From NCBI GenBank assembly GCA_049519175.1, contig JBEKQZ010000002.1, positions 6,782 to 70,781 on the forward strand: a stretch of DNA of 64,000 nucleotides, in the 5' to 3' direction. Positions 3,025 to 60,180 of the stretch are shown here, one piece after another (the stretch's first letter is position 1; each line of letters begins with the position of its first letter). Source of the stretch: Candidatus Levyibacteriota bacterium (lineage in GTDB: Bacteria > Patescibacteriota > Microgenomatia > Levybacterales > UBA12049). The position numbers were made by a program, and so were the translations under genes. The notes beneath the pieces were generated by a model, which worked only from the letters and a program-made list of their open reading frames with translations, was not told the origin of the DNA and searched no databases.

Positions 3025-3870
3025 TGGGATAAATGAAAGTTTTTTCCCGTTCCCACCCGGCGAGCGGATTTCCCGCACCGGGCGAGCCCTAATGATGCAT
3101 AGATAATTTTAATTGTCTGATTATATCTATTCCCTTTTGATTAAAATGATCTTTATTAATAATCATTTTAGTGACTTGAGAAAAAATCTCAAAATCACGT
3201 TGTTTTTTTGGGCTTTGAAGAGAATGTTTATTAAAAAAGTCAATCAATTTTAACTTATCTGTATTTGAATTTACTTCAAACCTATAACAAGATGAATGAT
3301 TTTTTCTTGTTTCTTTTTGAAAGTAAATAAAACCGAATTTTAAAAAATCTTTAATTTTCTCTAAAACTAGAAGATCATCTTCACGTAGTTTTATATAAAA
3401 ATGAGATTTTGCCCTTATATGAGCATTTGGATTCTTAGTTTTATCTCTTTCAGTAAGATTGACATAAAAACATCCTTCTCCGTCAGTTAATCCAACAATA
3501 TAATTTGCATCTATCATTAGGTTGTTTCCTTCATCACCGCAGCGGTAATAATTTTACTTTAGAGTAAAATGTTCTACTTGTCAATGATTACTATGAAAAC
3601 AGCTGACTTCTCTTAAAGCAAATGCTTTCTATCCTTAAGAGATCTCCCAAGGTCACTTACGAAACATTTCCAAACATCCTAACTAGATTTTTTCATAGTT
3701 CTTCTCCTAGACACACCGTTAGGATCGAACATCTATTTTTTTGTTAGGCTGCCTTTTGCTTCAGGCCCTCCAGGACATCTGTCACCAGTATTGTCCCTGC
3801 CATATCTTTTTAGCTACAAGAGTGGATTTTAACCACTTTGCTAAGTAAGCTGCTTGGCGCGCATTTATTC
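3025..3870 (-). mobile_element. 16S rRNA intron 2 (~846 nt) carrying a LAGLIDADG homing endonuclease gene; inserted between ACACA and CCGCCCGTC (E. coli ~1397)
   Basis: Plus strand gacgggcgg (3016-3024) and tgtgtacaag (3871-3880) are contiguous in every 16S rRNA but lie 846 nt apart here. The intervening sequence contains ORF 3089-3517. Confidence 0.75.
3089..3517 (-). CDS. LAGLIDADG-family homing endonuclease (intron-encoded)
   Basis: N-terminal motif IVGLTDGEGCFYV is a LAGLIDADG variant. The 142-aa basic protein lies wholly inside the 16S insertion. Confidence 0.8.
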   Translation of the reverse strand: MIDANYIVGLTDGEGCFYVNLTERDKTKNPNAHIRAKSHFYIKLREDDLLVLEKIKDFLKFGFIYFQKETRKNHSSCYRFEVNSNTDKLKLIDFFNKHSLQSPKKQRDFEIFSQVTKMIINKDHFNQKGIDIIRQLKLSMHH

Positions 3871-4170
3871 TGTGTACAAGACCCGAGAACGTATTCACCG
3901 CGGCTTGCTGATCCGCGATTACTACCGATTCCGACTTCATGAGGTCAGGTTGCAGACCTCAATCTGAACTGAGGCGAAATTTAAGGGATTCGCTTGCCAT
4001 TGCTGGCTTGCAGCCCGTTGTTTTTCGCCATTGTAGTGTGTGTGTAGCCCAGGGTATAAGGGCCGTGCTGACTTGACGTCTTCCGCTCCTTCCTTCCCAG
4101 TAAAACTGGGACCGTCTCCAATGAATATTCAACATTGGACGCGGGTTGCGCTCGTTTCCCCACTTAAGGG

Positions 4171-4214
<44 letters not shown>

Positions 4215-4322
4215 GTACCATCCTTGCGGATTTCTCTCCATTTCTGGAAAAATAAACGGTATCATGTCAAACCCTGGTGAGGTTTTTCGTTTTGTCTCGA
4301 ATTGAACCACACGCTCCACCGG

Positions 4323-4382
<60 letters not shown>

Positions 4383-5423
4383 TCTGCTTAACGTGTTAAC
4401 TTGCGCCTCATCGTTACCGAAAAAGCTAGCAGACATCGTTTACGGCTAGGACTACACAGGTATCTAATCTGTTTCGCTCCCCTAGCTTTCGTGCCTCAGC
4501 GTCAGGAAAATCCCAGATACTTGCCTTCGCCTTTGGTGTTCCAGTTAATATCAACGCATTTCACTGCTACATTAACTGTTCCAGTATCCCTGACAATCCT
4601 CAACATCGAAAGTATCATACCCACTCCCAAGGGTAAGCCTTGGTCTTTAAGGTATGACTTTTCGATGAGCCTACGCACACTTTACGCCCAATGAATCCGG
4701 ATAATGCTTGCATCCTACGTATTACCGAGACTTCTGGCACGTAGTTAGTAGATGCTTATTCTATAAACCGTGAAAGATTTATCAAAAGAAGTTTACGACC
4801 CTAAGGCCTTCTTCCTTCACGCGGCGTCGCTGCGTCAGACTTTCGTCCATTGCGCAATATTCCTAGTTGCTGCCATCCGTAGATGTACTGCCCGTATCTC
4901 AGTGCAGTTGTGGCTGATCGACCTCTCAGTCCAGCTACCCGTCATCGCCTTGGTGGGCTTTTACCCCGCCAACAAGCTGATAGGACGCAGGCTCATCCCT
5001 TGGCGCGAAGTTAATCGCTTTACAATAAATTGATTATGAACTATTACCCCAGCTTTCGCTGAGCTATGGTCCACCTAGGGGTAGATTCCTACGCGTTACT
5101 CACCCGTCTGCCATTTGGTCCTTGCGGACCCCATTCGACTTGCATGCCTAAGGCACGCCGCCAGCATTCATCCTGAACCAGGATCAAATTCTCAAAAAAA
5201 TTGTTCGGATTATCTTTAGGGAATTAATCCGAAAGAATTCCTACCACTTTTTGATCGAGAAGTTGTGACACTTCTTCACAAAAAGCTATCCTTTTCATTT
5301 TGTGCTGTACTTTTAAATTATCAAAGTGCAAAAACTTTTAAGAACCCCTATAAGACCAAAAATCCCGCCAAAGGCGGGGTGCAATCCCAAACTTATGGCG
5401 AAAGGTCTTACATATCTTTTACC

Positions 5424-7164: not shown

Positions 7165-8742
7165 ATGCTTTCAGATACCGAGCCTTTTTCACATCTTGCC
7201 ACAGCACTACTTAAAACCTTTGAGCCGAAAGCGGCTTACGACACCGGAAATAAGATTTCCGTCAATATTTTGGTTTCCAAAGTCGCCTCCTACTACGAAA
7301 AACTAAGAACCGCCATGGACTACGGCGGCGAAGAAACAATTTTACGAAGGACCATCGAAAGGACTTTAAAACGAATGTTGTTCTTGGAAGCCGAACCAAA
7401 CTCTATTGCTAAGGATCTTGTGCGGGAACTTATTTGGGCAGGTTATTTTGCCGATGCCACCGTCCCCGAGTCAATTGTCGCTAAAGTCGCTTCCTCAATT
7501 ACACTTTATTTGAGATTAAAAAATGACATTTTGGCACAAAAACTGCTGCCAAAAGTCGACATTTATAGCTATATTGTGCAACTTTTGTCCTGCGAAATCG
7601 ACTCGATTCTTTTGCCAAATCATGAAAAAGAGGCGTTGTGTAATTTTATGTTCCATATTCTTAAAGATTCGGTCGAAATTACCGACGACTCGGTGCAAAC
7701 TAAAGACGTCCAGGTGTTTATTGCCGTTCGGAAAAATTTTGCCCGCGACGATTTGGCTTTTTTAAGATACCGGCTGTTTTTGCAGATTTTTGGCCGGCTG
7801 ACGGAAGAAAATTTTGCTAAAGTTGTCGGTGGTTTTGTTGACGGCTATAAGGAAATCGAATACGAGTTGCAATACCCTAGGAAAGACCGCATTTTTAACC
7901 ACGTCAAAAAGAAAACCCCACCATTTTTAATTCTTTACGATCTACTGCTTAGGGAGCATACGACCATCAAAACTTTAGTCAAAGACCCGGAGAAATTCAA
8001 AGCACAGGTGTTTGCGATTTGCGAAACCCGCTATAAAAGCATAGGCAAGAAAATCCGCACCGCCATTATCCGTAGCTTTATTTTTATTCTTTTTACCAAA
8101 GCTTTCGTGGCACTGTTTATCGAGGGCACTTTTGAAAGACTTTTCTACGGACAGGTTCAATGGATGTCAATTGGACTAAATACCGTTGTCCCACCGCTTT
8201 TGATGATTGTCTCCGGGCTTTTGATTAAAACGCCAAACGCGCAAAATTCCAACCGCATTTATCTGGATATCCGCGAATTGCTGTTTACCGAAAATCCCCA
8301 AATAATTCCGACGCTACAGCTGAAACTAAAAAAAGACAGCGGTCACGCGGTTAAAGATTACGTCTTTTCAATTCTCTGGTTTTTGAGTATCGGCTTAGTT
8401 TTCGGACTGATTATCTGGGGACTCACGCTTTTGCATTTTAATCCTTTAAGTCAAATTATTTTCCTTTTCTTCGTGGCGATTGTTTCTTTTTTGGCCTACC
8501 GCATTTATCAAACCGCCAACATTTATTCCGTCATTTCCAAAACCAGCCTGTTTGGGCCGGTTTTTGACTTTTTCTTTGTGCCGATTGTGCGCGTCGGGCG
8601 AAGATTAACCGAGGGCTTTTCGCAAATCAATTTCATTTTGCTGTTTATTGACTTTCTAATTGAAGCCCCGTTTAAAGGACTGTTCGGATTTTTCGAACAA
8701 TGGTTTCTATTTTTAGCCAACAAGCGAGAGGAACTAGAATAG
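7165..8742 (+). CDS. hypothetical membrane protein (525 aa; soluble N-domain, ~6 TM helices C-terminal)
   Basis: Long ORF with C-terminal hydrophobic segments and no recognisable catalytic motif. Confidence 0.6.
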   Translation: MLSDTEPFSHLATALLKTFEPKAAYDTGNKISVNILVSKVASYYEKLRTAMDYGGEETILRRTIERTLKRMLFLEAEPNSIAKDLVRELIWAGYFADATVPESIVAKVASSITLYLRLKNDILAQKLLPKVDIYSYIVQLLSCEIDSILLPNHEKEALCNFMFHILKDSVEITDDSVQTKDVQVFIAVRKNFARDDLAFLRYRLFLQIFGRLTEENFAKVVGGFVDGYKEIEYELQYPRKDRIFNHVKKKTPPFLILYDLLLREHTTIKTLVKDPEKFKAQVFAICETRYKSIGKKIRTAIIRSFIFILFTKAFVALFIEGTFERLFYGQVQWMSIGLNTVVPPLLMIVSGLLIKTPNAQNSNRIYLDIRELLFTENPQIIPTLQLKLKKDSGHAVKDYVFSILWFLSIGLVFGLIIWGLTLLHFNPLSQIIFLFFVAIVSFLAYRIYQTANIYSVISKTSLFGPVFDFFFVPIVRVGRRLTEGFSQINFILLFIDFLIEAPFKGLFGFFEQWFLFLANKREELE

Positions 8743-12217: not shown

Positions 12218-12637
12218 ATGACAGAGCTAGAAGGAAGAAGCGAATTTAAACCAGTTTATGAAGTTATTCCCCCCTTAGTATTGCATCTTAATCAACTTGT
12301 AAATTTAGTTGCTGTCGAGAAAGCATTAAGAGATCCTGACACAGAAGATCCTAACAAAAAACGTTATACGCCTAAATATATCATCAGAATTAACCCCACT
12401 TACACCTTAGACCCCTCAGTGGATAAACCACTCATGACACAAGATTTCAAGGGAACCGAACGAGACTTTACCATCGCTCGCAGATGGATCGAAACAGCAC
12501 TTATAACGGGGATTCCCGATGCACTACGAATAGATTTAAGTAACGTAACAACCAACCTGTCATTAATAAAACAGGCTTTGCTAAAAGTTCATAAGGAAGG
12601 ACACACGGTTCGGTTATCTTCTAAACCAGCTGTCTAG
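12218..12637 (+). CDS. hypothetical protein
   Basis: The track ORF starts at TTG 12179. The first ATG is at 12218 (MTELEGR...). Its 3' end overlaps convergent mrdA by 24 nt. There is no motif. Confidence 0.3.
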   Translation: MTELEGRSEFKPVYEVIPPLVLHLNQLVNLVAVEKALRDPDTEDPNKKRYTPKYIIRINPTYTLDPSVDKPLMTQDFKGTERDFTIARRWIETALITGIPDALRIDLSNVTTNLSLIKQALLKVHKEGHTVRLSSKPAV

Positions 12638-14389
12638 GATTTGCTTGGCGATTGGGCCGGCGACATTACTTCCTTCCCCGCTATTTTCCGAAAGCACTGT
12701 GACTACAATTTGCGGCTTGTAAGCCGGCGCAAACAGTGTAATCCAGGCGTGTGCTAAAGTATCGTTTCCGCCGTTTTCCGCCGTTCCGGTTTTACAAGCC
12801 AAAACTACGTGGCGCATGTCGGCGGAGCCGGAAGCCGGATCAACGCCTAAAATGTTTTTGCCGTCAATCGGCAGTTTGGCGTTTTTGATTTCGTAATTAA
12901 ACAGCGGCCAGGCCACCCCGCCGGGGCTGCACGCCTCCACCATTCCCTCTTTAATCAAATCCGAAGAATGCGCGTCCAAAAGATTGGAGCTGGTAATCTG
13001 CGCTGGTTGGTTCATTAGCAAATGTGGGCGGTATAAATTGCCATTGTTGGCAATCGCTTGTGTCCAGGCATTAACTTGCAGCGGCGTCGTCAGTAAATAT
13101 CCCTGTCCGATTCCGTAATGATAAGTATCGCCTAAATACCACTGTTCACCGATATTTTTTAATTTCCATTCCTCGGTCGGCACCAAGCCTGCTTGCTCGC
13201 CTTCCAAATCAATTCCTAATTTTTGGCCCAAGCCAAACAGTTTGGCCGTCGCCGAAACCTGGTCAACGCCCACTTTTGCCGCCAATTTATAAAAGAAAAT
13301 ATCGTTTGAACGCTGAATGCCCTTAACAATATTTACCTGCCCGTCGGTGCCGCCATAATCGGTATAATACCAGTTGGAAAAAGAAAAATCGCCGACTTTT
13401 AAAATTCCCGTGTCGTCGATTTGCCAATTTTCATCAATGATTTTATTTTTGAGTGCCGCCGACGCCACAATTAGTTTAAAAGTTGAACCGGGCGGATAAA
13501 CTCCGCCGATTGCCCGGTCCAAAAGCGGCTGATTTTGCGAATCCGAAAGCACATCCGAAACGGTTAAATAGGCGCTGTCGCTGGCAATTTTGTAACCCTG
13601 CCCCATCGTAAACATATTCGGGTCAAATGAGGGTTTGGAAACCAACGCTAAAATTTCGCCTTGCGGCGTAGAAACTATCGCCGCGCCTTTTTTCACACTG
13701 GCCATAGCAGCAAAAACCGCTTCCTGAAGTTTGGAGTCCAGCGTTAAAGTGATATTTTGCCCGGCAATTGGGTCCTGTTGGCCAAGCTTTCTGGTTAAAT
13801 TGCCCCGGGCGTCGACTTCGAACAATTCTTTTCCGTCCACCCCCCGAAGTTTCGGCTCATATTGCTGTTCAATACCGCTTCGTCCAACAATGTCGCCCGA
13901 ACTGTAATCCGAGAACAACGGATTTGCTAGCTCGTCTTGGGAAATTTGCCCGACATAGCCCAAAACGTGGGCAAAAGCATCTTTGTAAGGATAATTACGT
14001 AAGCTGTCAACTTCCAAATCGTTTTTGCCAGCGGCAATTAAATTAAGCGCCTGGTCCTGTGGAATTAATACCGTTTTGCCGTTGACATTTTCCCTAAATC
14101 CGGGCACATTATAAACCAACGGAGTGCCGTTTCGGTCAAAGATGATGCCCCGCGGCGCGTGAATTGTCACTGTTTTTGTCCGATTGCTGTCGGAAAGGTA
14201 TCTATAATAGTATCCCTGAATTATCTGTAAGAAAAACAGCCGAACAAAAATTACGGCAAAGAGAATTATGGCAAAAGCAGGCAGGAAAAAATTCCGAGCC
14301 GAATGATTTTCTCCCTCATAATCCCAATTCTTTCTTTTACTACTGTCTTTAAAAATATAATCGCCGAAGGCGACTCCGGGCTTTACCAT
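12614..14389 (-). CDS. mrdA: penicillin-binding protein 2 (peptidoglycan D,D-transpeptidase)
   Basis: N-terminal TM, SxxK (GSTFK), SxN (RSNDIFF) and KTG (KTGTAE) motifs. It follows mreD as in canonical mreBCD-mrdA operons. Confidence 0.9.
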   Translation of the reverse strand: MVKPGVAFGDYIFKDSSKRKNWDYEGENHSARNFFLPAFAIILFAVIFVRLFFLQIIQGYYYRYLSDSNRTKTVTIHAPRGIIFDRNGTPLVYNVPGFRENVNGKTVLIPQDQALNLIAAGKNDLEVDSLRNYPYKDAFAHVLGYVGQISQDELANPLFSDYSSGDIVGRSGIEQQYEPKLRGVDGKELFEVDARGNLTRKLGQQDPIAGQNITLTLDSKLQEAVFAAMASVKKGAAIVSTPQGEILALVSKPSFDPNMFTMGQGYKIASDSAYLTVSDVLSDSQNQPLLDRAIGGVYPPGSTFKLIVASAALKNKIIDENWQIDDTGILKVGDFSFSNWYYTDYGGTDGQVNIVKGIQRSNDIFFYKLAAKVGVDQVSATAKLFGLGQKLGIDLEGEQAGLVPTEEWKLKNIGEQWYLGDTYHYGIGQGYLLTTPLQVNAWTQAIANNGNLYRPHLLMNQPAQITSSNLLDAHSSDLIKEGMVEACSPGGVAWPLFNYEIKNAKLPIDGKNILGVDPASGSADMRHVVLACKTGTAENGGNDTLAHAWITLFAPAYKPQIVVTVLSENSGEGSNVAGPIAKQILDSWFRR

Positions 14390-14394
14390 AATCG

Positions 14395-14814
14395 TTAAGA
14401 GCTAGCAACTGATGACCGTGGTAGTCTTTGCATTATTTTGAATAGTAATAACCCGATAATAACACTTAGAATTGACTCTAAAATAATCGAGCGCGTGTAT
14501 CCTTGCAAAAATAAGAATAGCAAGCTACCTAAAAATGACGCGATAAGCATAAAATAGCCGGTGGTGATTTCAAATTTACTTTGGTACAAAAGCACCAAAA
14601 ATAAAAATAGTACTAAAAAAGCACTCGTTACGCCAAGCGTCTTGAATGATAATAAGTCAAACAGCAACCCGAAAATAAATGCCAGCACAAACAACCAATT
14701 TTCCCTAAGTATCACCATTAAGCAAAGCAAAACCAAAAAAATTAAAGGGAGAGTAGTCAAGCTTGCTTCTAAAACTAACGCTAACGATAAAAGAATAACT
14801 GCCAGAAATTTCAT
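14395..14814 (-). CDS. mreD: rod shape-determining protein MreD
   Basis: 139-aa polytopic membrane protein immediately downstream of mreC, overlapping it by 4 nt. Confidence 0.7.
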   Translation of the reverse strand: MKFLAVILLSLALVLEASLTTLPLIFLVLLCLMVILRENWLFVLAFIFGLLFDLLSFKTLGVTSAFLVLFLFLVLLYQSKFEITTGYFMLIASFLGSLLFLFLQGYTRSIILESILSVIIGLLLFKIMQRLPRSSVASS

Positions 14815-15611
14815 TGGTAATTAACGACGACAAAAACAGTTTTTAAATTATTAAAATCGATCAAAGGCTGGATGTCCGCTTTTTGAAATAAATCACTTGG
14901 GTTTTTGCTGATAGAAATTATTTTCCCCACCGTTAAGTCAGGCGGAAAACCGTTGTTTTGTAGATTAATGTCTCCTGCGGTTACCACCAAATCATCTTTT
15001 TTGAGGCTGTCCGACAAAATAACGTTGTCCAAAATTACCTCATTGCCGCCTTGACCTTTAATCACGCCTTGTGCTTTCGTTTCCAAGGTTTCGGCAATAA
15101 ATTGCGACGAAGGGTTTGTCAAAAGCATAACGCTGGATAAATTGGCGCTTACTTGCGTTATTTTGCCAACCAGATTATTTTCGTAAACCACCGCGTCACC
15201 ATTCTTGACACTATCATTTGTCCCTCGGTTAAGAATTAAGATTTCGGGAACGGAAAGCCCTGGCACAAATCCAGGCGCGCCGACCACATCCGCCGGCAAC
15301 AAGTTGGGACTTTTCGGATTGGCGGTCTGAAACTGGTCTCTTAAAGCTTTATTGTCACCGATTAATTTATTTTGGTCGATTAGCTGCTTTGCTAAAGTCA
15401 AATTTTCTGCTTTGAGGGACTGGATTTGGGCATTTTGCCCAAAACCCGTCACTTTTGTAAAAGCTTGATAAGTTATCGACTGCACCGGCGAAAAAATGTC
15501 TTTGAAAAATGCATCGAGTGGATTTAAAAGGCCGATTTTCGAAGCTCCGATTAGCAAAAGTGAAAGAGCGAAGAAAACTAAAAAATAGGAAGTAAAACTA
15601 CTTTTGCGCAT
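14811..15611 (-). CDS. mreC: rod shape-determining protein MreC
   Basis: N-terminal TM, a coiled-coil (QIQSLKAENLTLAKQLIDQNKL), and a C-terminal beta domain typical of MreC. Confidence 0.85.
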   Translation of the reverse strand: MRKSSFTSYFLVFFALSLLLIGASKIGLLNPLDAFFKDIFSPVQSITYQAFTKVTGFGQNAQIQSLKAENLTLAKQLIDQNKLIGDNKALRDQFQTANPKSPNLLPADVVGAPGFVPGLSVPEILILNRGTNDSVKNGDAVVYENNLVGKITQVSANLSSVMLLTNPSSQFIAETLETKAQGVIKGQGGNEVILDNVILSDSLKKDDLVVTAGDINLQNNGFPPDLTVGKIISISKNPSDLFQKADIQPLIDFNNLKTVFVVVNYQ

Positions 15612-15649: not shown

Positions 15650-15964
15650 TTAGGAGGATTCGTAGGGCTCAAGCCACATATTAGTCTTTAAAGTTGGAGT
15701 CGCGGTTGGCTTAATTCCTAAACTTACAAGCGGCAAAGGGACGTCACGCTTTACGGGAGTGGCAATTTCAAAATCCGCAAAATCTATACCGTATTTATTT
15801 AAACGGTATGGAGGTCTTGCTACGGTTACCAGTTCACGACGGTATATTTCTCCCTCCGGAGTAGCACTAACTAACCAAAATACAGCGCCCTTCTTAACTT
15901 CGCCGTTTTGCATAACCCTTCTAGGGCTTTCTTCTTGAGATGCATCTGTTTGCTCTGTTTTCAT
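15650..15964 (-). CDS. hypothetical protein (104 aa)
   Basis: Lies between the inserted cassettes and mreC. No motif. Confidence 0.45.
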   Translation of the reverse strand: MKTEQTDASQEESPRRVMQNGEVKKGAVFWLVSATPEGEIYRRELVTVARPPYRLNKYGIDFADFEIATPVKRDVPLPLVSLGIKPTATPTLKTNMWLEPYESS

Positions 15965-16023: not shown

Positions 16024-16326
16024 TCAAGCAGTTTCCTTATTAATTGCTTTCGGACGGATAAAATGTAAACCGGCCAATGCTTCAGGAGCTAATTTTAATT
16101 CGGGTTGACCATTAAAGGGCTTTTCTCCGTCAGAATAATCAATTTTCAATCTTATTCCTCGCTCATTAATATCCAGAACCGTCACCGGCCACCAAGGAGG
16201 TTCGTCAATATCCGGATTGCCGGACATAACGAGCAGATAACTTCCCCCTTGGGTGAGCCTTTTAAAAGCAATTTCTTCACCCATACCTTGACGGTATCTT
16301 TTTTGACCTTCAGATTCTAACCGCAT
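16024..16326 (-). CDS. hypothetical protein (100 aa)
   Basis: No motif. Confidence 0.45.
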   Translation of the reverse strand: MRLESEGQKRYRQGMGEEIAFKRLTQGGSYLLVMSGNPDIDEPPWWPVTVLDINERGIRLKIDYSDGEKPFNGQPELKLAPEALAGLHFIRPKAINKETA

Positions 16327-16375
16327 AAGGTATTTATTATAGCTGAAACTTAGTTATTCGTCAAACTATGGGTTT

Positions 16376-16400
16376 TTATTTGAGGCCGCCGATGACTTTA
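16376..16400 (-). repeat. direct repeat DR3: a non-coding remnant encoding ...LIKVIGGLK*, a duplicate of the mreB 3' terminus
   Basis: The minus-strand sequence aaagtcatcggcggcctcaaataa (KVIGGLK*) is preceded by an in-frame stop. 19 of 24 nt match the real mreB end at 17547-17570, and 16 of 18 match the Ndt-like gene end. Confidence 0.65.
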
Positions 16401-16401
16401 A

Positions 16402-16836
16402 TTAGCTATTGATGACTTCTTTTAACTCTATATTCTCCTTATCGTATTCAAATCTAATTCTCCATTTGTCAAAAAATCCATCTTGACCTAATATTCCGTA
16501 TGGTAAAGATTTCATTTCGTAACTAAATCCAATATAGGCTTTGTGCTCTATTCCGCCAATTTTGAACGATACGTTATGAAAGTATGCTTTTTGTGCTTCT
16601 CCCGAAGTGCCGTGGAATGTTAGCTCGTCTCCTTTGGTAACATCAAACCCCAACCTTTCCCCTATTTCTCCATGGAATACACAAAAATCTGCTCCGGAAT
16701 CTATTAAAACAAGATAGCTAAAATTTCCCTTCTTTGTTTCAAAGTCAATTTGGATGATTGGTCTTAGTGATGATTTTCGTTTAAAGTTTGGGTTTTCTTT
16801 GGGATTAAGGGGAAACTTACGATATCTAAAATTCAT
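16402..16836 (-). CDS. retropepsin-like aspartic protease (clan AA, DSG active site)
   Basis: LVLIDSGADFCVF carries the D-S/T-G-A signature, and the ~140-aa size fits single-domain bacterial retropepsin-like proteins. Confidence 0.7.
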   Translation of the reverse strand: MNFRYRKFPLNPKENPNFKRKSSLRPIIQIDFETKKGNFSYLVLIDSGADFCVFHGEIGERLGFDVTKGDELTFHGTSGEAQKAYFHNVSFKIGGIEHKAYIGFSYEMKSLPYGILGQDGFFDKWRIRFEYDKENIELKEVINS

Positions 16837-17030
16837 AAGATGTATGCACCGTAGTTTTTGGGGGCGCGAGTAACAATTGGATTAGAAATGCCTTTTTCAA
16901 TTGCTTTGTCCATAACATTATTGAAATTTTTGCCGGAGGCAACAACTTTTAGGTCATTTGGAGATAATACAACCCACTCATCAGAATACTTTTGTAATTT
17001 ACTTGATAGATCATTTAGTCTTGCTTTCAT
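16833..17030 (-). CDS. small hypothetical protein (65 aa), translationally coupled to the retropepsin-like protease
   Basis: The stop and start overlap in ATGA at 16833-16836. The protein is basic and has no motif I recognise. Confidence 0.5.
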   Translation of the reverse strand: MKARLNDLSSKLQKYSDEWVVLSPNDLKVVASGKNFNNVMDKAIEKGISNPIVTRAPKNYGAYIL

Positions 17031-17069
17031 AAATTTATGATATCACTTTTTAGATTAAAAACCAAATTT

Positions 17070-17090
17070 TTACTTGAGGCCGCCGGATTT
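17070..17090 (-). repeat. direct repeat DR2 (forms the last codons ...SGGLK* of the Ndt-like gene)
   Basis: ttacttgaggccgccggattt matches DR3 at 15 of 16 positions in its 5' part. Confidence 0.6.
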
Positions 17091-17546
17091 AGTTTTCAAT
17101 TTTGAGAAATAATTAAGATCCCCTTTTAAAAAGACAGGATTAATGCCAAAAATTTCCTCTTTGATTGGTAAATCAGCGGCGATGTCGTTGAGAATAAAAA
17201 TTGGCTTTTTGAAAAAATACGCCAAGGTAATTTCCATTAAAGTATTTCCGCCGATGTAGCCTTTGACGCCATTTTTGGCAAAATTTGTGACTAAAATTGC
17301 ATCCCCTTTGATAATTTTTTGAAAATGTTTATCTATCAAGGCTCTTTTTTTATGGTAATCCCCGGGATTTTTATACCATGTCTTGTGCGCGGCGACATCA
17401 AAATTATTATTTCGCTTCATCACTTTGGCAGTGGATGGCAAAATAACCTTGTAGCCAAGTTTTTTGAGCATTATTTGAATTGGAAAAAGGTCTTTATAGA
17501 ATGAGGCGCTGGAGCAGATAACAATGGTTTTTATCTTTTTCATCAA
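17070..17546 (-). CDS. nucleoside 2-deoxyribosyltransferase-like (Ndt/Rcl/DNPH1 fold) protein
   Basis: GYIGGNTLMEITLAYFFKKPIFIL matches the Ndt-family G-x-x-x-E-x-G-x-A-x-x-x-KP catalytic-Glu motif. The Rossmann-like N-terminus is KTIVICSS. It abuts the mreB stop with 0 nt spacing. Confidence 0.55.
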   Translation of the reverse strand: MMKKIKTIVICSSASFYKDLFPIQIMLKKLGYKVILPSTAKVMKRNNNFDVAAHKTWYKNPGDYHKKRALIDKHFQKIIKGDAILVTNFAKNGVKGYIGGNTLMEITLAYFFKKPIFILNDIAADLPIKEEIFGINPVFLKGDLNYFSKLKTKSGGLK

Positions 17547-17570
17547 TTACTTTAATCCGCCGATGACTTT
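17547..17570 (-). repeat. direct repeat DR1 = the genuine 3' end of mreB (…KVIGGLK*)
   Basis: ttactttaatccgccgatgacttt. The core ccgccgatgacttt is shared with DR3. Confidence 0.6.
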
Positions 17571-18638
17571 GACCCGTTGCAACAGCGAATCCTCTTCCAA
17601 CACTTTTCCGGTGCCGCGGACGACCGAAGTCGTTGGGTCTTCCGAGCGGATAACCGGTAAATGCGTTCTTTCCACGATTAAATTATCAAAACCCGGCAGC
17701 TGCGAACCCCCACCGGTTAGTAAAATGCCGTGCGTTAAAATATCGCTGGTTAATTCCGGCGGCGCGTCTTCCAAAACAGCGGCGATGGCATCAATAATTT
17801 GCGTTAATACCGGCGACAAAGCCTCTCTAACTTCCACTTCGGAAATCCTTAAACTTTTTGGCAAGCCTGTTTCAATATCGCGGCCCCTGATAATAGCTAC
17901 CTTTTCCTCGTCTTTTGGCTTATCGCTTGTGATTTGGGATTTGTGATTTGGAGCTTTCGCATAAGCACTACCGATTCTAATTTTTAAATCTTCTGCCGTC
18001 GCTTCACCAATCAACAACCCATGCCTTAACCTTATGTAATGAATAATTGCCGCATCCATCTCGTCTCCCGCCACTCTTAAGGATTTAGAAACGACAATTC
18101 CGCCCAACGAAATAACGGCAATTTCGGTGGTTCCGCCGCCGATGTCCACCACCATAATTCCGGTTGGGGCAAACACCGAGATATTTTCGCCGATGGCCGC
18201 CGCCATCGGCTCTTCAATTAAATAAGCCTGCCTGGCCCCGGCCGACAGTGCGGCTTCCCAAACCGCCCGTCTTTCTACCTCGGTCACTGAAGATGGAATA
18301 CCGATGACAACGCGCGGCCTTGAAAAATTGGCCGACAAAGGACTGTCCACTTCGTGCACTTTTTTAATGTAATGGGAAATCATCGCTAGCGTCGCGTCAA
18401 AATCGGAAATTACTCCGCCGCGAAGCGGCCTGACGGTGATAATCGAAGCCGGCGTTTTACCAATCATTTTTTTTGCTTCCGCCCCTATTGCAATTACTTT
18501 TTTAGTTTTTTTGTGCATCGCCACCACCGACGGTTCGCGGATAACAATCCCTTTGCCCCGGACAAAAACGAGCGTGTTGGCGGTGCCTAAATCAATACCA
18601 ATGTCATGGGAAAATAAAGAGAATATCTTATTAAACAT
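17547..18638 (-). CDS. mreB: rod shape-determining protein MreB (actin homologue)
   Basis: The phosphate-1 motif IGIDLGTANTLV and the actin-fold motifs DIGGGTTEIAV and LTGGGS are present. Confidence 0.95.
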   Translation of the reverse strand: MFNKIFSLFSHDIGIDLGTANTLVFVRGKGIVIREPSVVAMHKKTKKVIAIGAEAKKMIGKTPASIITVRPLRGGVISDFDATLAMISHYIKKVHEVDSPLSANFSRPRVVIGIPSSVTEVERRAVWEAALSAGARQAYLIEEPMAAAIGENISVFAPTGIMVVDIGGGTTEIAVISLGGIVVSKSLRVAGDEMDAAIIHYIRLRHGLLIGEATAEDLKIRIGSAYAKAPNHKSQITSDKPKDEEKVAIIRGRDIETGLPKSLRISEVEVREALSPVLTQIIDAIAAVLEDAPPELTSDILTHGILLTGGGSQLPGFDNLIVERTHLPVIRSEDPTTSVVRGTGKVLEEDSLLQRVKVIGGLK

Positions 18639-18641
18639 AAC

Positions 18642-18748
18642 TTAGAATTCCTAATTTAAAATTTCTAATTTCTAATCAAATCCAAATGTTCTAATTTTAA
18701 AATTTAGGCATTGAAACATTCATTAAAAATTAAAAATCGAGAATTTCC
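18642..18748. repeat. AT-rich intergenic repeat family 3 (TTTCTAATTTCTAATCAAATCCAAATGT...AAAATTAAAAATCG)
   Basis: The near-identical block recurs at 52892-52975 and 61661-61705, and as a reverse complement at 36185-36228. Confidence 0.45.
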
Positions 18749-24986: not shown

Positions 24987-25058
24987 AGCCGGCTGTGGGA
25001 ATCGAACCCACGATCTAGTCATTACCAATGACTTGCTCTGCCACTGAGCCAAGCCGGC
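24987..25058 (-). tRNA. tRNA-Thr (anticodon GGU)
   Basis: Reverse complement GCCGGCTTGGCTCAGTGGCAGAGCAAGTCATTGGTAATGACTTAGATCGTGGGTTCGATTCCCACAGCCGGCT. The arms are canonical and the anticodon loop is AUUGGUAA. Confidence 0.9.
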
Positions 25059-25073
25059 CCGTCCCACGGTCAG

Positions 25074-25157
25074 TGCTGGGTGAGGGACTCGAACCCCCGC
25101 AGACCTTACGGTCATCTGGTCTACAGCCAGAGGCGATTGCCGCTACGCGAACCCAGC
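25074..25157 (-). tRNA. tRNA-Tyr (anticodon GUA), class II with a long variable arm
   Basis: Acceptor GCTGGGT/ACCCAGC, anticodon loop CUGUAGA, and a 15-nt variable arm TGACCGTAAGGTCTG. Confidence 0.9.
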
Positions 25158-25197: not shown

Positions 25198-25971
25198 TTA
25201 ATTCTCCCAAAAATCAATAAGAGGTTTATAATTAGCTTCAATTTCTTTATATTCAACTTTAGATAATATTTCAAGTTTTATCTTGGGAAATTTCTTCCGG
25301 AATAATTTATCTCTTTCCAAAGAATAGTTATTCATAAAATTTTTTACTTCTATATACAAATCTTCAATCGGTAAATAAAAATCGGGTCTGTAAGTGTGTT
25401 GCCCAAGATCAAAAATCTTAGGCCCGTATTGCCACGTAACTCCTACTAAATTAAAAACGCGTGCGATATTGGCTTCCCAAGTACTATAAAAGCATATGCT
25501 TGAGTTTATATCGAGCCTTATGCCGGGTTTGCCTTTAGAGGCTTTTGGAGAGGTAGTTAATCTCCCAATTGTATATATTGCACATTTATTGCTGCAATAT
25601 TTTCTTTTAGAAGCAACGTAGGGTAGAATTGTAAATTCCTTTTTGCAACATAGGCAAACTTTTGTAATTCGTTTAACTTTTTTCAATCCCTTGAGCGGAC
25701 TATGAAAGCCTTGCAAAGCTAAAGAAATCTTTCTTTTTGTTTCTTCTGTTTGAAGCCGTTTCGCATTATTAAAAGAGGTGGCGCAGTTTTTGCTACAAAA
25801 TATTTTGGGGTCGCGTGGTTTAACCCAAAACGAGTTCGGACAGTTACCGTTCTTGCAATTTCTAGTCTCAAAGGGCTTTATTTTCTTGGCATATATTCCT
25901 TTTCGCCAATTAGTTTTGCTTATTGCTGACTGTTTTTGCCTGTATCTTAAGTCTGAATAGAAAGAATGCAT
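25198..25971 (-). CDS. homing-endonuclease-like protein: tandem Cys-rich zinc ribbons + NUMOD3-like motif + C-terminal PD-(D/E)XK (Vsr/DUF559-like) nuclease domain
   Basis: Two zinc ribbons: CKNGNCPNSF...CSKNCATSF, and CLCCKKEF...CSNKCAIY. ETKRKISLALQG resembles NUMOD3. The C-terminus YRPDFYLPIEDLYIEVK carries a PD...(D/E)xK motif. The gene sits between tRNA-Thr(UGU) and tRNA-Tyr. Confidence 0.6.
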   Translation of the reverse strand: MHSFYSDLRYRQKQSAISKTNWRKGIYAKKIKPFETRNCKNGNCPNSFWVKPRDPKIFCSKNCATSFNNAKRLQTEETKRKISLALQGFHSPLKGLKKVKRITKVCLCCKKEFTILPYVASKRKYCSNKCAIYTIGRLTTSPKASKGKPGIRLDINSSICFYSTWEANIARVFNLVGVTWQYGPKIFDLGQHTYRPDFYLPIEDLYIEVKNFMNNYSLERDKLFRKKFPKIKLEILSKVEYKEIEANYKPLIDFWEN

Positions 25972-25990: not shown

Positions 25991-26062
25991 AGCCGATGGG
26001 GAATCTTGCAATCCCGACCCATGCTTTACAAAAGCATTGCTCTACTTCTGAGCTACATCGGC
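25991..26062 (-). tRNA. tRNA-Thr (anticodon UGU) with a non-canonical T-loop, possibly a pseudo-tRNA
   Basis: Reverse complement GCCGATGTAGCTCAGAAGTAGAGCAATGCTTTTGTAAAGCATGGGTCGGGATTGCAAGATTCCCCATCGGCT. The acceptor, D and anticodon arms are good (loop UUUGUAA). The T-loop is UGCAAGA (G at position 55) and the D-loop lacks GG. Confidence 0.5.
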
Positions 26063-43663: not shown

Positions 43664-46600
43664 TTATTGCGTTGGAGTTGGCGTGATGTTTAGTTGATTA
43701 ATGATTGATTGAAACGCCGCCGAGTCGGTCGCGGTTGGAATTGGCGTGACGTCCAAATTAAGCCCCGAAGTTTGCGCATCCCGCACTGATAATGCTACCC
43801 AGGAGAAACTAATATCTTCCGGCGCCGGTTTATTTAGCTTGATGACAAAACCTGTCGTGGTTCTTTGCGTAACCACGTAGGAAATATTATTATTAAGAAT
43901 TGTATCTTCCAGAGTTTGCTGCGTGGCGCTGTCCCCTGTTTTGTCCATAGCAATGCTGGCGGTGACCACCGGCGTGTTCACATATTCCTGATTGAAATTA
44001 ACTTGCACGCTGTCCAAGCCCTGTTGGATAACCGCAAATCCGGCGGTATCATTATTAAAGGTCGGCGTGGAATCAAAACGGACATTGCCTTTGAAAACCA
44101 CGTCCTGAATAAAGTAAGCAAACTGCGAAACCAAAAGGTTTTGGGTGGTAAGATTATTTAGAACATTCAACGCTCCCTGAATAAGGCCGTTGCCCCCAAC
44201 ATTTAGGTCGGCCGAAATAGTGGCTAAGCCGTCGACATTAAGACTGGTAAGAGTAAGCACTGTTGGAAGCTGTGCCGAACCGGTGGCCAGTTCCGCGCTC
44301 CCCGTCGCGTCCGCCAAAACCGCCGTGTTGTCATTAAGCGGTAGGGTCTGATCGGTGGGAATTTCCAATCCCCCGACTATTTCGTCGGCAATTAGCTTTT
44401 CGACGTGCAAAGTTCCGCTGATGGTGGCATCGCCGGTGTTCAAGCTATTTGAAGTTAATTGTCCGCTGAAACTGGCGTTCCCCTGATTATCAATGGTAGC
44501 AACCGCCAAACCCGAAGCTGAATTGCTATTCAAAACGGACAGCTGATTGCTATTTAGCTTTAAAGCGACATTTGCATTATCGTCTATTGGAACAATCAGA
44601 CTCGTCTGCAAAGTATTAACTGTTGCTAGCGGCGAAATTATAGTTTGACCGTTAGAAAGTGCAAATTGTGAATTCGAAATAGCGCTGGTAACAATACCGG
44701 TAATATAGTCTCTGACATTTTGTCCATTGATGGTGATATTTTCGCTGGCAACGCTTAAAGCATTAGTGGTAATTTGCCCGGCGTTGACAAATCCTACCCG
44801 CAAATTGGCAATCGCCGCGTCGGAAAATTCTCCGACTCGGGCAATCGGATTTCCTAAAGCATCATTTAGCGTAAAGTAATGCGGAATTGTGTAGTTGGTG
44901 TTGCTCGCGGTCTGGTCAACCAGATTCAAATTTCCGCTTGAAGTTAGATAAACCTGCGGATCATACCAAGTGGGATTGACATAAACCTCTATTTCTCCGC
45001 TGGTTCCAGCGTCAACCGCCATTCCGATTACCGGTCCGGCTTTAGTGGCTTTGACGGCAACTCCGGATGTGCTTGAATAAGTTAGATAGTCTCCTGGATT
45101 GATAGCGCCGTTTTGCGAATTTATCTCGGTCCTTAGCTGTCCTAGTAAACCGACGGTTACATAATCAGGGTCATCTTCGTGAGAATCATTTCCTAAAACA
45201 ATGTAAGAATTAGAAATAACGCCGAGTATTTGAGTATTATTGTTGTCGCATTTTATAACTCCACCATTTGTATCAATGCAAACCAAATCTCCCGGATTCA
45301 ACACGTCATTTGCATTTGCTTTTTTAAACCATTCGGCATAATCCCCGCCCGTTGAGCTAAGAGTTACACTGCTTCCGGTGCCCAGAATTTTTCCGATTAT
45401 TGTTCCGTTTCCGGTGGCAAAGTTAATATATCTGTCTGCAGAACCGGGTAATGCTCCGTTATTTGTCCCTAGTCTTAGCGATAAAGCAGTATGACAAGTT
45501 GAGTTGGTACAAGCGGCGTTGCCGGTATTTGGAAAGGCATTCCAAATTTGTGCCGAAGCCGTTGAAGAGCTGGAGCCAATCACCTGAAATTTAATGTTTC
45601 CCGAAGTGGATGCTGAAGCACCAAGCAGTAATTGGTTAGCACCTATGGATACTGTAGATGCCAATCCCGCGAAATTCAAAGTTCCGGTTAATCCGGTATT
45701 GAATAACGCTAACGTTCCTGAGGTTTGGTTTGTAGCAAGGGTTGTACCATTTAGCGTTATTGTTGCCGAAGAAGCTCCTAGAGTTAAGGCTGTTGCCGCC
45801 CCACCATAAGTTATTGTTGTCGGAGTCCCAAATTCCGTCAGCGTTGTAGCAGTTGTGTTTAGTGTATAGCTTGCCCCGGTATTCGGATTTAAACTCAAAG
45901 AGGTTGACGAAGTTAAAGTAGATAGCGAATTAGCCGTTATCGACGCACCGCTCGCGGTAATATTTCCGGTGTTACCTACCGTAAACATAGTCCAGCCGGA
46001 AGCGGAAGCGGTGAACAAATCGCCTACGCCATTATTATTAGCAACCAAAGCGGCAAAGGAAGTTCTACCCGAGACCGAAGCCGCCGGAACGGTTCCGTTC
46101 ATTGCCCGCACATCTAATGTGCTAGCGGGAGTAGTGGTGCCGATACCGACATAACCGGTATTATCCCGGACGGTCATGGCCGTTCCCCAAGTATTGAGTC
46201 CGGATTTATAACCAAAGTTTAAAGTGCCGTTGCCCGGTTCAATGGTGGAGCTGGTAGCTCCTCCAAGGACTAGTGTTGCCGACAAAGAGGCACTGCCGGT
46301 GGGAGCTCCCATGTTTAAGGTAGTAGCAGCTCCACCATAAGTTATTGTTGTCGGAGTCCCAAATTCCGTCAGCGTTGTAGCAGTTGTGTTTAGTGTATAG
46401 CTTGCCCCGGTATTCGGATTTAAACTCAAAGAGGTTGACGAAGTTAAAGTAGATAGCGAATTAGCCGTTATCGACGCACCGCTCATAGTTAGAGTGCTGG
46501 CTATGGTTAGCGCTCCGCCTGAACTCAAAGTATTACTTGAAGAAAAGAATTGGATGTTGCCGGTTGAACCGGAGTTAAGGGTTAAAGTATTTGAGCCGGT

Positions 46601-59160: not shown

Positions 59161-60180
59161 TTATTTTTTGGCAATGCTTCTTTTATACAATTCTATATTC
59201 TCCAGCGCTACGCCGGTTCCCCGGACAACGCATAACAGCGCGTCTTCCGCCATATGGCACGGGACGCCGGTAACTTTGGTCATTAGTTTATCAAAATTGG
59301 TCAGAAGCGATGTGCCGCCCGACATCACCACGCCTTTGTCGATAATGTCGCTGGCCAATTCCGGCGGAGTTTGTTCCATGACGCCTTTGACCGCCGAAAT
59401 AATATCGATTAAAACCGGATAGATGGCTTCGTTAATTTGGCCTTCGTTTAACTCGACTGTCCGGGGCAAACCGGTAATCGAATCCCGGCCACGGATTTCC
59501 TTTTTGAGTTGATCGGAAACCTTTTTGTCGTCTAAATACGCGTTGGCCATCTCAATTTTAATTTCTTCGGCTGTGCGCTCCCCAATTAACAAATTAAACT
59601 TCTTCTTGATATAGTTAGCGATCGCCTCGTCAATTTTATTGCCACCGACGCGCACGGAATTGTGCACCACTACGCCGCCCAAGGAAATAACCGCCGCCTC
59701 GGTTGAACCACCGCCGATATCTACCACCATATGCCCTGCCGGTTGAGCAATCGGCACTTTTGCGCCAATGGCGGCGGCCAATGGCTCTTCGATTAGATAA
59801 GCCACTTTTGCCCCGGCTGCCATCGTCGCATCCAAAACTGCTCTTCTTTCTACCTGTGTCACGCCCGACGGAATACACACCATCACTTCGGGTTTAAAAA
59901 AACGCGACTTGCCGGCCGCTTTATCGATAAAATAAGACAGCATCGCTTCGGTAATGGTGTAATCGGCAATGACGCCGTCGCGAAGTGGCCTTAAAGCAAT
60001 GATATTCCCCGGAGTTCGCCCAAGCATTTCCTTGGCTTCTTTGCCGACGGCGACGACGCGGTTTTCTTCAACCGTGACTGCCACCACAGTTGGTTCGTTC
60101 AGAACAATTCCTTCTCCGGCTACATAAACCAGAGTATTAGCAGTCCCTAAGTCAATACCAATTCTCTTAGAGAATGCCAT
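59161..60180 (-). CDS. MreB-family actin homologue, second paralogue
   Basis: IGIDLGTANTLVYV, DIGGGSTEAAVISL and MSGGTS motifs. A strong SD (GGAGG) lies 8 nt upstream. Confidence 0.9.
   Translation of the reverse strand: MAFSKRIGIDLGTANTLVYVAGEGIVLNEPTVVAVTVEENRVVAVGKEAKEMLGRTPGNIIALRPLRDGVIADYTITEAMLSYFIDKAAGKSRFFKPEVMVCIPSGVTQVERRAVLDATMAAGAKVAYLIEEPLAAAIGAKVPIAQPAGHMVVDIGGGSTEAAVISLGGVVVHNSVRVGGNKIDEAIANYIKKKFNLLIGERTAEEIKIEMANAYLDDKKVSDQLKKEIRGRDSITGLPRTVELNEGQINEAIYPVLIDIISAVKGVMEQTPPELASDIIDKGVVMSGGTSLLTNFDKLMTKVTGVPCHMAEDALLCVVRGTGVALENIELYKRSIAKK

Follow-up and report, generated by a model that had tools for sequence, protein, structure and literature searches.

A repeated copy of the mreB coding end bounds small gene cassettes at the mreB-mreC junction of a Levybacteria lineage and may serve as their docking site

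We analysed a stretch of 64,000 nucleotides from a Candidatus Levyibacteriota bacterium (contig JBEKQZ010000002.1, positions 6,782 to 70,781; hereafter the window), in which inserted genes and copies of the last codons of mreB lie between mreB and mreC. The repeated unit, which we call R, comprises the last 8 (sometimes 9) mreB codons together with the stop codon, 24-27 nt in all. The reading that we put forward, and to which we give even chances, is that in this Levybacteria lineage the space between mreB and mreC forms an array of cassettes that dock at R and enter by conservative recombination. What we observed is the architecture of the repeats, its independent recurrence around unrelated contents, the empty sites of relatives, the mobility of one cassette and the position of homology breakpoints inside R. 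The host belongs to the tiny-genome groundwater bacteria of the Levybacteria-type Candidate Phyla Radiation (CPR; Microgenomates), and the closest MreB among species-representative genomes, 75% identical, comes from Candidatus Levybacteria. Very small genomes are typical of the CPR/Patescibacteria (PMC6509639, PMC11809585).

R is present three times in the window, each copy closing a gene unit on its 3' side; its right edge is a stop codon in every case, its left edge lies 21-27 nt upstream, and its core reads GTCATCGGNGG...TAA. The locus had previously been singled out by a model from the letters and a list of open reading frames (ORFs), and this sequence-only reading had named the three repeats DR1 to DR3. 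The features on which the argument leans are the following (* marks a stop codon):

17547-18638, minus strand: mreB (363 aa), the anchor gene, ending ...QRVKVIGGLK* (Pfam MreB_Mbl, E 5.5e-130)
17547-17570, to 17573 with the extra codon, minus strand: R1 (= DR1), AAAGTCATCGGCGGATTAAAGTAA, GTC AAA GTC ATC GGC GGA TTA AAG TAA
17070-17543, minus strand: Ndt-like gene of 157 aa, whose ATG at 17543 lies 3 nt after the mreB stop
17070-17090, 17067-17090 including the trailing AAA, minus strand: R2 (= DR2), AAATCCGGCGGCCTCAAGTAA, AAA TCC GGC GGC CTC AAG TAA + AAA
16402-17066, minus strand: mobile two-gene cassette, composed of leader, DUF5678 and retropepsin-like aspartic protease
17031-17066, minus strand: promoter-like leader of the cassette
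16833-17030, minus strand: small ORF with a DUF5678 domain (Pfam E 1e-7)
16402-16836, minus strand: retropepsin-like aspartic protease, 144 aa (Pfam Asp_protease_2, E 3e-8, in agreement with the sequence-only reading)
16376-16399, 16373-16402 including the flanks, minus strand: R3 (= DR3), AAAGTCATCGGCGGCCTCAAATAA, (ATT) AAA GTC ATC GGC GGC CTC AAA TAA + AAA
16336-16372, minus strand: conserved flank CCCATAGTTTGAC after R3, then the best sigma-70-like promoter of the region

R1 is the functional mreB end with its stop, translated as KVIGGLK*, and the peptide (K/R)V(I/T/V)GGL(K/R)* is conserved at the MreB end of Microgenomates. R2 is translated in frame as the C-terminus of the Ndt-like protein, KSGGLK*, and R3 is non-coding, lies outside the ORFs and closes the cassette, sharing the final base of the retropepsin stop codon. 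R1 and R3 match at 20 of 24 positions, all 4 differences being synonymous; R2 and R3 match at 18 of 19, and their identity continues 3 nt beyond the stop (TAAAAA), to 16373 and 17067. This comparison bore out the sequence-only reading in the position of the three repeats and in the nature of each, namely the true mreB end, the end of the Ndt-like gene and a copy out of any ORF. The same reading had described R3 as a chimera of the other two: such a make-up is compatible with the product of a crossover, but the mreB end of L180 (loci on related contigs are labelled L followed by a number) has the very sequence of R3, which also matches the R copies of L178, L088 and L099 at 23 of 24 positions, so that its assembly in situ is not needed.

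Scans of the window and of the related loci ruled out chance and a common C-terminal motif. The two half-patterns of R are confined to these sites in the 64 kb, bar one 1-mismatch match within an unrelated ORF (expected counts in the window 0.27 and 0.45), and mreB stood alone among the 78 window ORF 3' ends tested in having a downstream copy, at 20/24; the same test gave one chance-level match of 18/24, and one match in the control. The best background match to a locus's own mreB end was 14-16/24 in most loci and 19 in L020. The peptide pattern GG[LIVM][KRQ]* occurred 31 times in the six-frame translation of 967 kb, and among the matches listed for 25 loci and the window 20 of 27 were mreB ends and 3 of 27 were R copies; thus the repeat is not the common ending of unrelated genes that the sequence-only reading had named as its own disproof. 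The structure, filled site included, is identical on all 7 contigs of the window species, and the three contigs that were read derive from different samples, therefore an assembly artefact was ruled out. The species is present in the samples ENA ERZ27250144, JGI 3300038423 and JGI 3300009760. A genome-wide habit of duplicating gene 3' ends was also rejected, mreB being the only case in 64 kb: the second MreB paralogue of the window (59161-60180, minus strand, 339 aa), which ends in ...YKRSIAKK*, has neither an R-like end nor a downstream copy, which argues that only the operon-linked mreB is the docking site. Rfam finds no RNA or tRNA target at the site.

A phage or viral origin of R was considered and set aside. 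The only match among 2.9 million viral contigs, at L089 7600-7623 (IMGVR_UViG_3300039437_000107), agrees at 24/24 with the R associated with the Ldh_2 gene of L088 (AAAATCATCGGCGGCCTCAAATAA); it falls inside a phage ORF (187 aa, opposite strand) and is probably a chance match.

Alignment to related genomes, which had been suggested as a check, returned both empty and filled junctions. In L002, L005, L006, L010, L017, L022, L024, L094, L095, L098 and L109 mreC starts 10-80 nt after the mreB stop, and the many relatives with such an empty site agree with the earlier description of the junction as an insertion hotspot. The filled junctions of other Microgenomates hold inserts of 0.3-7.5 kb with very different genes, and at least 15 different contents lie between mreB and mreC across this group. 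A subset of them shows the R design of the window, in arrays of 1-3 units (a hyphen joins elements that are adjacent in the mreB direction):

L179: mreB-R, Ndt-like gene with the tail IKVAAGLK*, 52 nt, mreC
L084 and L085: mreB-R, Ndt-like gene with the tails KSPGGLK* and KTSRSLK*, other genes, mreC
L088: mreB-R, Ldh_2 gene ending KIIGGLK* (22/24 to the mreB end), Ndt-like gene ending EVTTDLK*
L177: ORF without identity, R (out of frame), Ndt-like gene ending KAIGGLK*
L178: retropepsin gene, R, Ndt-like gene, decayed R, 100-aa ORF, mreC
L180: mreB-R, DUF5678 and retropepsin genes (both pseudogenised), R, HAD gene (opposite strand), R, mreC
L001: mreB-R, Trypsin_2 peptidase gene (opposite strand), R (copies 20/21 identical), mreC
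L099: mreB-R, 222 nt non-coding, R
L112: mreB-R, 51 nt non-coding, R

Some details of these loci deserve mention in their own right. In L180 DUF5678 is interrupted by an in-frame stop and the protease ORF is truncated or disrupted; the annotated start of the opposite-strand HAD gene (7190-7219) crosses the third copy of R, so that the protein would begin with MFSLQPPDDFDPA, but translation probably starts further in. The partial ORF upstream of R in L177, guessed by eye to be a dehydrogenase, gave no Pfam match. The 222-nt insert of L099 (9171-9392) contains a perfect 20-nt palindrome (cctgcctgccggcaggcagg) and has no similarity to any cassette seen elsewhere, and the 51-nt insert of L112 (9051-9101) carries a GTCATCCTGAGCGAA...CGAAGGATC-type sequence, which we take to resemble a short repeat common in environmental genomes.

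The Ndt-like gene follows mreB directly in L084, L085 and L179, and lies after the inserted Ldh_2 gene in L088. Its divergence matches that of mreB (75 vs 77%, 73 vs 74% and 85 vs 86%), which indicates an old, vertically inherited insertion. The family counts 1323 homologues with a typical length of 147-152 aa, and the extra tail of ~8 residues is confined to the closest Ndt-like subgroup, the more distant members being tailless; in line with the sequence-only reading, the SGGLK* of the window gene can thus be traced to the mreB end. Taken together, the tails SGGLK, AIGGLK, SPGGLK, VAAGLK, TSRSLK and TTDLK read as a decay series of KVIGGLK, that is, as an in-frame copy of R in the course of decaying. 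In the AlphaFold2 (AF2) model of the protein the predicted local distance difference test score (pLDDT) is 91.4, and falls below 50 at tail residues 154-157. The Ndt label given by the earlier reading holds at the fold level: the top Foldseek matches of the model were 8rh3 (NDT), 8rpt (DNPH1), 2a0k and 8of6 (YtoQ), with probability 1.00 and template-modelling (TM) scores of 0.46-0.62, the best fold matches scoring about 0.56-0.60, and the modelled fold is Rossmann-like, of the nucleoside 2'-deoxyribosyltransferase/DNPH1 type. By sequence, however, the protein had no significant Pfam or PDB match, the best being of PF05014 type with E 0.035, in 6 of 30 members.

The second unit of the window is of a different kind. 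The DUF5678 and retropepsin genes are found in three array positions, namely downstream of the Ndt-like gene (window), upstream of it (L178) and directly after mreB (L180), and a comparison of the window with L180 gave the following nucleotide identities:

cassette (664 nt): 89.9%
mreB: 75.8%
mreC: 67.7%
upstream Wzy_C gene: 69.1%

The identity of the cassette is uniform along its length. Judging from these comparisons, the gene pair is a discrete mobile cassette, horizontally acquired and recent in the window. Moreover, the flank that follows R3 (AAACCCATAGTTTGAC) is found in L085 and L088 behind the stop of the Ndt-like gene, which argues that the cassette entered the R ending the Ndt-like gene. 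The window would therefore hold two separately acquired units, as the sequence-only reading had supposed when it spoke of two successive insertions; its view that they are nested in mreB was not upheld, because this flank match makes them serial, the old Ndt-like gene coming first and the cassette later, into the R of that gene.

That the DUF5678 and retropepsin pair always travels with R was ruled out. In L170-L176 (e.g., L173 1037-1707 and L176 3797-4438), from other Levybacteria, it occurs in unrelated contexts without R as a tight pair, with genes overlapping or nearly abutting. The promoter-like leader is conserved in the copies compared (L170, L171 and L174), and an unconvincing, weak repeat of 11-15 nt flanks the pair in L173 and L174 (CCCAGCTTTAC). 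The pair resembles a selfish module of the toxin-antitoxin type.

The breakpoints of homology between the window and L180 fall inside R. On the left the homology starts at CGGCGGCCTCAA and on the right it stops at AAAGTCAT, the breakpoints sitting between AAAGTCAT and CGG. In L180 the R on the mreB side equals R3 of the window and has the cassette-type right half, whereas the distal R2 and R3 share the other type, GGGGGGCTGAAGT, and the copies around the retropepsin cassette differ at 5 of 15 right-half positions. This pattern points to a reciprocal crossover joining an R carried by the cassette with one in the chromosome, and is not expected from local target duplication. In L099 all 7 differences between the copies (7/7) are at third codon positions, and the distal R uses codons that are rare in the mreB of that genome, e.g., CTC, which accounts for 0 of its 31 Leu codons; in L112 the copies encode KVTGGLR* and RITGGLR*. 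To judge by their codons, the R copies around one insert are different valid alleles of the mreB end, and such alleles, together with breakpoints inside R, favour conservative recombination over target-site duplication. The claim of the sequence-only reading that each insertion duplicated its target is consequently not supported, the more so as the cassette carries its own R type in L178 and L180.

We propose that a cassette would comprise one or two genes preceded by a short leader, together with an R of its own that abuts the last gene at its 3' end or is fused to it. Entry would be by conservative (reciprocal) recombination of this R with one in the chromosome, the latter being either the end of mreB proper or a copy that an earlier cassette has left behind. 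The product would be gene-R-cassette-R, in which both R copies are hybrid, like attL and attR; mreB would always retain a valid ...GGLK* end, and the downstream R would either stay non-coding or be translated as a tail of the cassette protein. Repeated rounds would then lead to serial accretion and shuffling. For the window, the history might have been an ancient Ndt-like insertion, inherited vertically with its R tail decaying, followed by recombination of the DUF5678 and retropepsin cassette into the R of the Ndt-like gene. The intermediate would be a circle bearing one R, with a predicted junction running from the retropepsin 3' end through a single R to the DUF5678 leader (...ATCAATAGCTAATTAAAGTCATCGGCGGCCTCAARTAAAAATTTGGTTTTTAATC...), and the reaction would be driven in trans by a site-specific recombinase whose gene lies elsewhere in the genome or on a helper element.

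Several results weigh against this proposal. The circular intermediate is one that we infer, no circle or excision product having been observed. No recombinase family was matched in the Pfam scan of ~27 window ORFs, nor was a recombinase gene found in ~12 arrays with 5-10 kb flanks (precomputed Pfam) or in the larger inserts L009 and L012 of other Microgenomates (Pfam), and no integrase-bearing element was present at the site in ~25 insert-bearing junctions, where inserts of 3.5-3.8 kb were Pfam-scanned and those of 5-7.5 kb listed as ORFs only. The enzyme search covered the window, the junctions and the fetched contig stretches. R has no hairpin, six R contexts folded as DNA (three of them for both strands) having z-scores of -0.3 to +1.0, and no dyad symmetry, as judged by eye. 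Many junction inserts have no detectable R copy (L003, L004, L009, L090, L091, L092 and others), so that R-dependent entry is not the sole route, or else R decays fast. Finally, the Ldh_2-R junction of L088 falls at a short shared CTAAAA/GTAAAA, a microhomology of 5-6 nt, and could reflect microhomology-mediated joining; the GGLK-type tail of this Ldh_2 is limited to the L088 protein and one 94% relative out of 120 homologues, the relatives ending in ...YKELKALSTKPTTS.

As candidates for the enzyme, the genes within the larger inserts of related junctions were inspected for an integrase; they were NYN, NUDIX, dihydroorotate dehydrogenase (DHODH), orotidine monophosphate (OMP) decarboxylase, phosphoribosyltransferase (PRTase) and other genes. 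The search for a recombinase elsewhere in the window covered 20 further ORFs, none of which matched. The statement of the sequence-only reading that no integrase or transposase lies nearby is thus in agreement with our scans of the window ORFs and of the called genes in the fetched related stretches.

The strongest competitor does without a dedicated enzyme: natural transformation and RecA-dependent or short-homology recombination would use R (24-27 bp) as a portable homology arm, a scenario that we regard as rather unlikely. It may include the looping-out of circles by recombination between two R copies and their re-entry at another R, with new genes gaining R by rare microhomology joins. The lack of a recombinase at all loci examined and the microhomology at the Ldh_2-R junction speak for it, and the length of R is near that of a minimal RecA substrate. 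Also in its favour, the copies that were apparently active recently are the most identical, sharing the 23-mer AAGTCATCGGCGGCCTCAAATAA in the window, L178, L180, L088 and L099, and inserts without R use the same junction, as in the minimal mobile elements of Neisseria (PMC3787668). On the other hand, the recombined R copies differ from one another at 15-25% of their positions, a poor substrate for RecA, the breakpoints are limited to a few bases of R, and at least 7 unrelated contents have R exactly at their 3' edge, which is hard to obtain by chance joins. Furthermore, the long and better homology of mreB shows no co-transfer or mosaic: neither the mreB 3' end nor the Ndt-like 5' end around the Ldh_2 insert has a step in identity (L088 vs L085), a comparison in which a closely related donor would leave no trace.

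Target-site duplication, in which a transposase, casposase or Cas1-like integrase makes staggered cuts of ~21-27 nt at the mreB stop, joins arbitrary DNA and leaves the gap to be filled, is in our opinion improbable. It would account for the right edge of R being always a stop codon, for the fairly constant length of 21-27 nt, for the nearly identical copies of L001 (20/21) and for inserts unconstrained in size and content, from 51 nt to ~1 kb; casposons indeed insert at the 3' ends of genes, and a repeat of about this length is duplicated in CRISPR adaptation. It cannot easily explain why the proximal R of L180 is the cassette-type R of other genomes and its distal R that genome's third copy, why the copies of L099 and L112 differ only by synonymous or conservative changes, or why the retropepsin cassette is seen carrying R with it. 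Besides, the repeat search of the window detected no terminal inverted repeats at the cassette ends, and no locus examined contained Cas1 or a transposase. Hardly credible is the last alternative, that R and its flank are an expression signal, kept or convergent, such as a termination-reinitiation context or a promoter-proximal element: genes after R do often begin 2-7 nt past its stop and a strong promoter-like site follows R3 (TTGACG-17-TATAAT, an 11/12 match, the best of the region in the promoter scan, preceding the downstream genes), but a signal makes no duplicates, R varies freely at synonymous positions in empty-site genomes, the Ndt-like tails decay, and neither the permuted cassette order nor a cassette identity of 90% against 76% for mreB would be accounted for.

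The remainder of the locus and its surroundings can be described briefly. Between mreB and mreC the sequence-only reading had reported three genes, all of which were found, and had omitted two further small ORFs. The additional features are:

16024-16326 and 15650-15964, minus strand: two small ORFs (100 and 104 aa) between R3 and mreC, with no assigned function
12614-15611, minus strand: mreC, mreD and PBP2, the distal part of the operon (Pfam MreC; tblastn synteny; precomputed Pfam)

The two small ORFs had no Pfam or NCBIfam match, and the small-ORF content before mreC is variable, since they are absent from the other loci and L178 holds a different 100-aa ORF at the same place. The order divergent Wzy_C/TPR gene - mreB - ... 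- mreC - mreD - PBP2 is kept in relatives, and at all loci the upstream neighbour is the divergent Wzy_C/TPR gene, then peptide deformylase. A reiterated CTAATTTCTAAT-type motif lies upstream of mreB (window 18639-18697) and also upstream of mreC or in the junction of L099 (9460-9505), L003 (7472-7502) and L095 (7843-7881); it may be a shared regulatory element of mre genes.

Junction inserts without an R copy include, in two close relatives whose MreB proteins are 80-81% identical, a Phd/ParE toxin-antitoxin pair (L091 2189-2708, where mreB ends in ...GGLS*) and a low-molecular-weight phosphatase with a gene of no assigned function (L090 5339-6379). More distant Microgenomates (L011, L013, L014, L107, L108, L113 and L012) have multi-gene blocks in the mreB-mreC gap; that of L012 consists of pyrimidine-synthesis genes, namely DHODH, OMP decarboxylase and phosphoribosyltransferase (Pfam), and similar-looking blocks elsewhere were seen as ORFs only. 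The mreB-mreC slot has also been used for stable operon growth.

Elsewhere in the window, Rfam reports a group I intron, which with a 142-aa ORF adjoins the 16S rRNA gene (2736-2947, 3089-3517 and 3821-5199, all on the minus strand). The N-terminus of this ORF (LTDGEGCFYV) looks like that of a LAGLIDADG homing endonuclease, the 16S match covers 1379 nt of DNA for a 1533-position model, and the intron probably lies in the adjacent rRNA gene. An ORF with a NUMOD3 motif, typical of free-standing homing endonucleases (25198-25971, minus strand, 257 aa), is located between tRNA genes at 24987-25157 and 25991-26062, far from the locus. Two long-range direct repeats, 48193-48268/53913-53988 (76 nt, 88%) and 56246-56380/61725-61859 (135 nt, 89%), have copies ~5.5-5.7 kb apart near genes for large secreted or surface proteins, and could be a shared leader, promoter or RNA; a 181-nt repeat with 95% identity (45773-45953/46304-46484) is an internal protein repeat inside the gene for a 1380-aa surface protein (43664-47806).

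The acquisition of accessory genes in CPR bacteria is, to our knowledge, poorly understood. In this lineage one defined site of 24-27 bp, at the end of an essential gene, would collect and exchange single-gene cassettes across species, with contents ranging from metabolic enzymes and proteases to a selfish-looking two-gene module. If a recombinase acting in trans exists, R would be a new and very compact att site, with a cassette format of possible use in engineering, and would make horizontal transfer in uncultured bacteria accessible to testing, by way of circle junctions in reads and of co-occurrence with a recombinase family; should no enzyme be required, a portable homology arm of 24 bp would suffice for cassette traffic. 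In either case the ...GGLK tails on unrelated proteins find an explanation, and annotators should be warned that such tails may be recombination scars.

Among known systems, integrons come to mind for their single-gene cassettes, with a site at the 3' edge of the ORF, that are stacked, reordered and exchanged next to a fixed anchor, and for the one-site circle that the proposed intermediate would resemble. We consider it possible, and hold it more tentatively than the docking at R itself, that the arrays represent an integron-like cassette-capture system of CPR bacteria, not previously described, with an att site in the mreB coding end, cassettes of one gene and a 24-27-bp site that is often fused in frame to the ORF, and an unlinked recombinase, if any, from the host or a helper element, acting on a site that lacks a hairpin and any obvious dyad; such a system would add a new class of micro-cassettes mobilised in trans, and would offer genomes thought to be poor in mobile elements a way of gaining genes. 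Literature searches returned no mreB-end attachment site and no CPR cassette arrays. Unlike in integrons, there is no IntI gene beside the R array, the neighbour being the Wzy_C/TPR gene; R, at 24-27 bp, lacks the imperfect inverted repeats and hairpin of attC; the anchor is the end of an essential gene and not attI; the cassette of L001 points the other way; and the retropepsin cassette brings along a promoter-like leader of its own.

Sites of the pdif type are 28 bp long, with 11-6-11 dyads, and alternate in orientation on plasmids. The R copies are instead direct, have no obvious dyad and, on inspection against the dif consensus, no likeness to it, and they sit at one chromosomal gene end. 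They share with the Xer dif modules of Acinetobacter plasmids (PMC6449649, PMC13141974) the presence of small recombinase-less modules that are bounded by short sites and, presumably through a host enzyme acting in trans, reshuffled among replicons. The minimal mobile elements of Neisseria are also alternative whole-gene cassettes placed between two conserved genes across strains, without mobility genes (PMC3787668, PMC1797815), but their exchange relies on homologous recombination within the genes on either side, and they duplicate no gene end, whereas the breakpoints described here are confined to R. DDE transposons and casposons differ in that the R copies around one insert are non-identical (L180, L099, L112 and the window) and terminal inverted repeats are lacking. 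The mobile ORFs of fungal mitochondria (e.g., in atp6 of Allomyces) supply a replacement 3' coding end and leave the native end downstream, driven by a homing endonuclease; no R cassette encodes such an enzyme.

Closest to these arrays, among known systems, are elements that accrete in tandem at a housekeeping gene's 3' end. ICESt1, for instance, targets the 3' end of fda. In Dehalococcoides a 20-bp ssrA 3'-end repeat bounds tandem islands, some units of which are integrase-less, and a conserved position sets the repeats apart from the gene itself (PMC3146451). Cis-mobilizable elements (CIMEs) are decayed elements that retain attL and attR and are joined by newcomers, and their accretion has been described (PMC5704250, which cites Pavlovic 2004 on elements related to ICESt1). 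The R units depart from CIMEs and ssrA islands in their size (0.05-1 kb, with none, one or two genes, against islands of 10-30 kb), in having no integrase-bearing member at R in the genomes examined, in their target gene and host group, and in that R lies in protein-coding sequence, with cassette ORFs often fused in frame. The resemblance extends to elements that are integrative and conjugative (ICEs) and to those that are integrative and mobilizable (IMEs): as in ICE, IME and CIME accretion, the direct repeat duplicates the final ~20-27 bp of a gene that is essential and single-copy, mreB is left intact and always ends in ...GGLK*, and exchange is limited to the att core, leaving hybrid sites such as the R1 of L180. 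As in CIME accretion, moreover, the units are stacked in tandem, each ending in the repeat, some of them carry no integrase, and the repeats differ consistently from the gene end.

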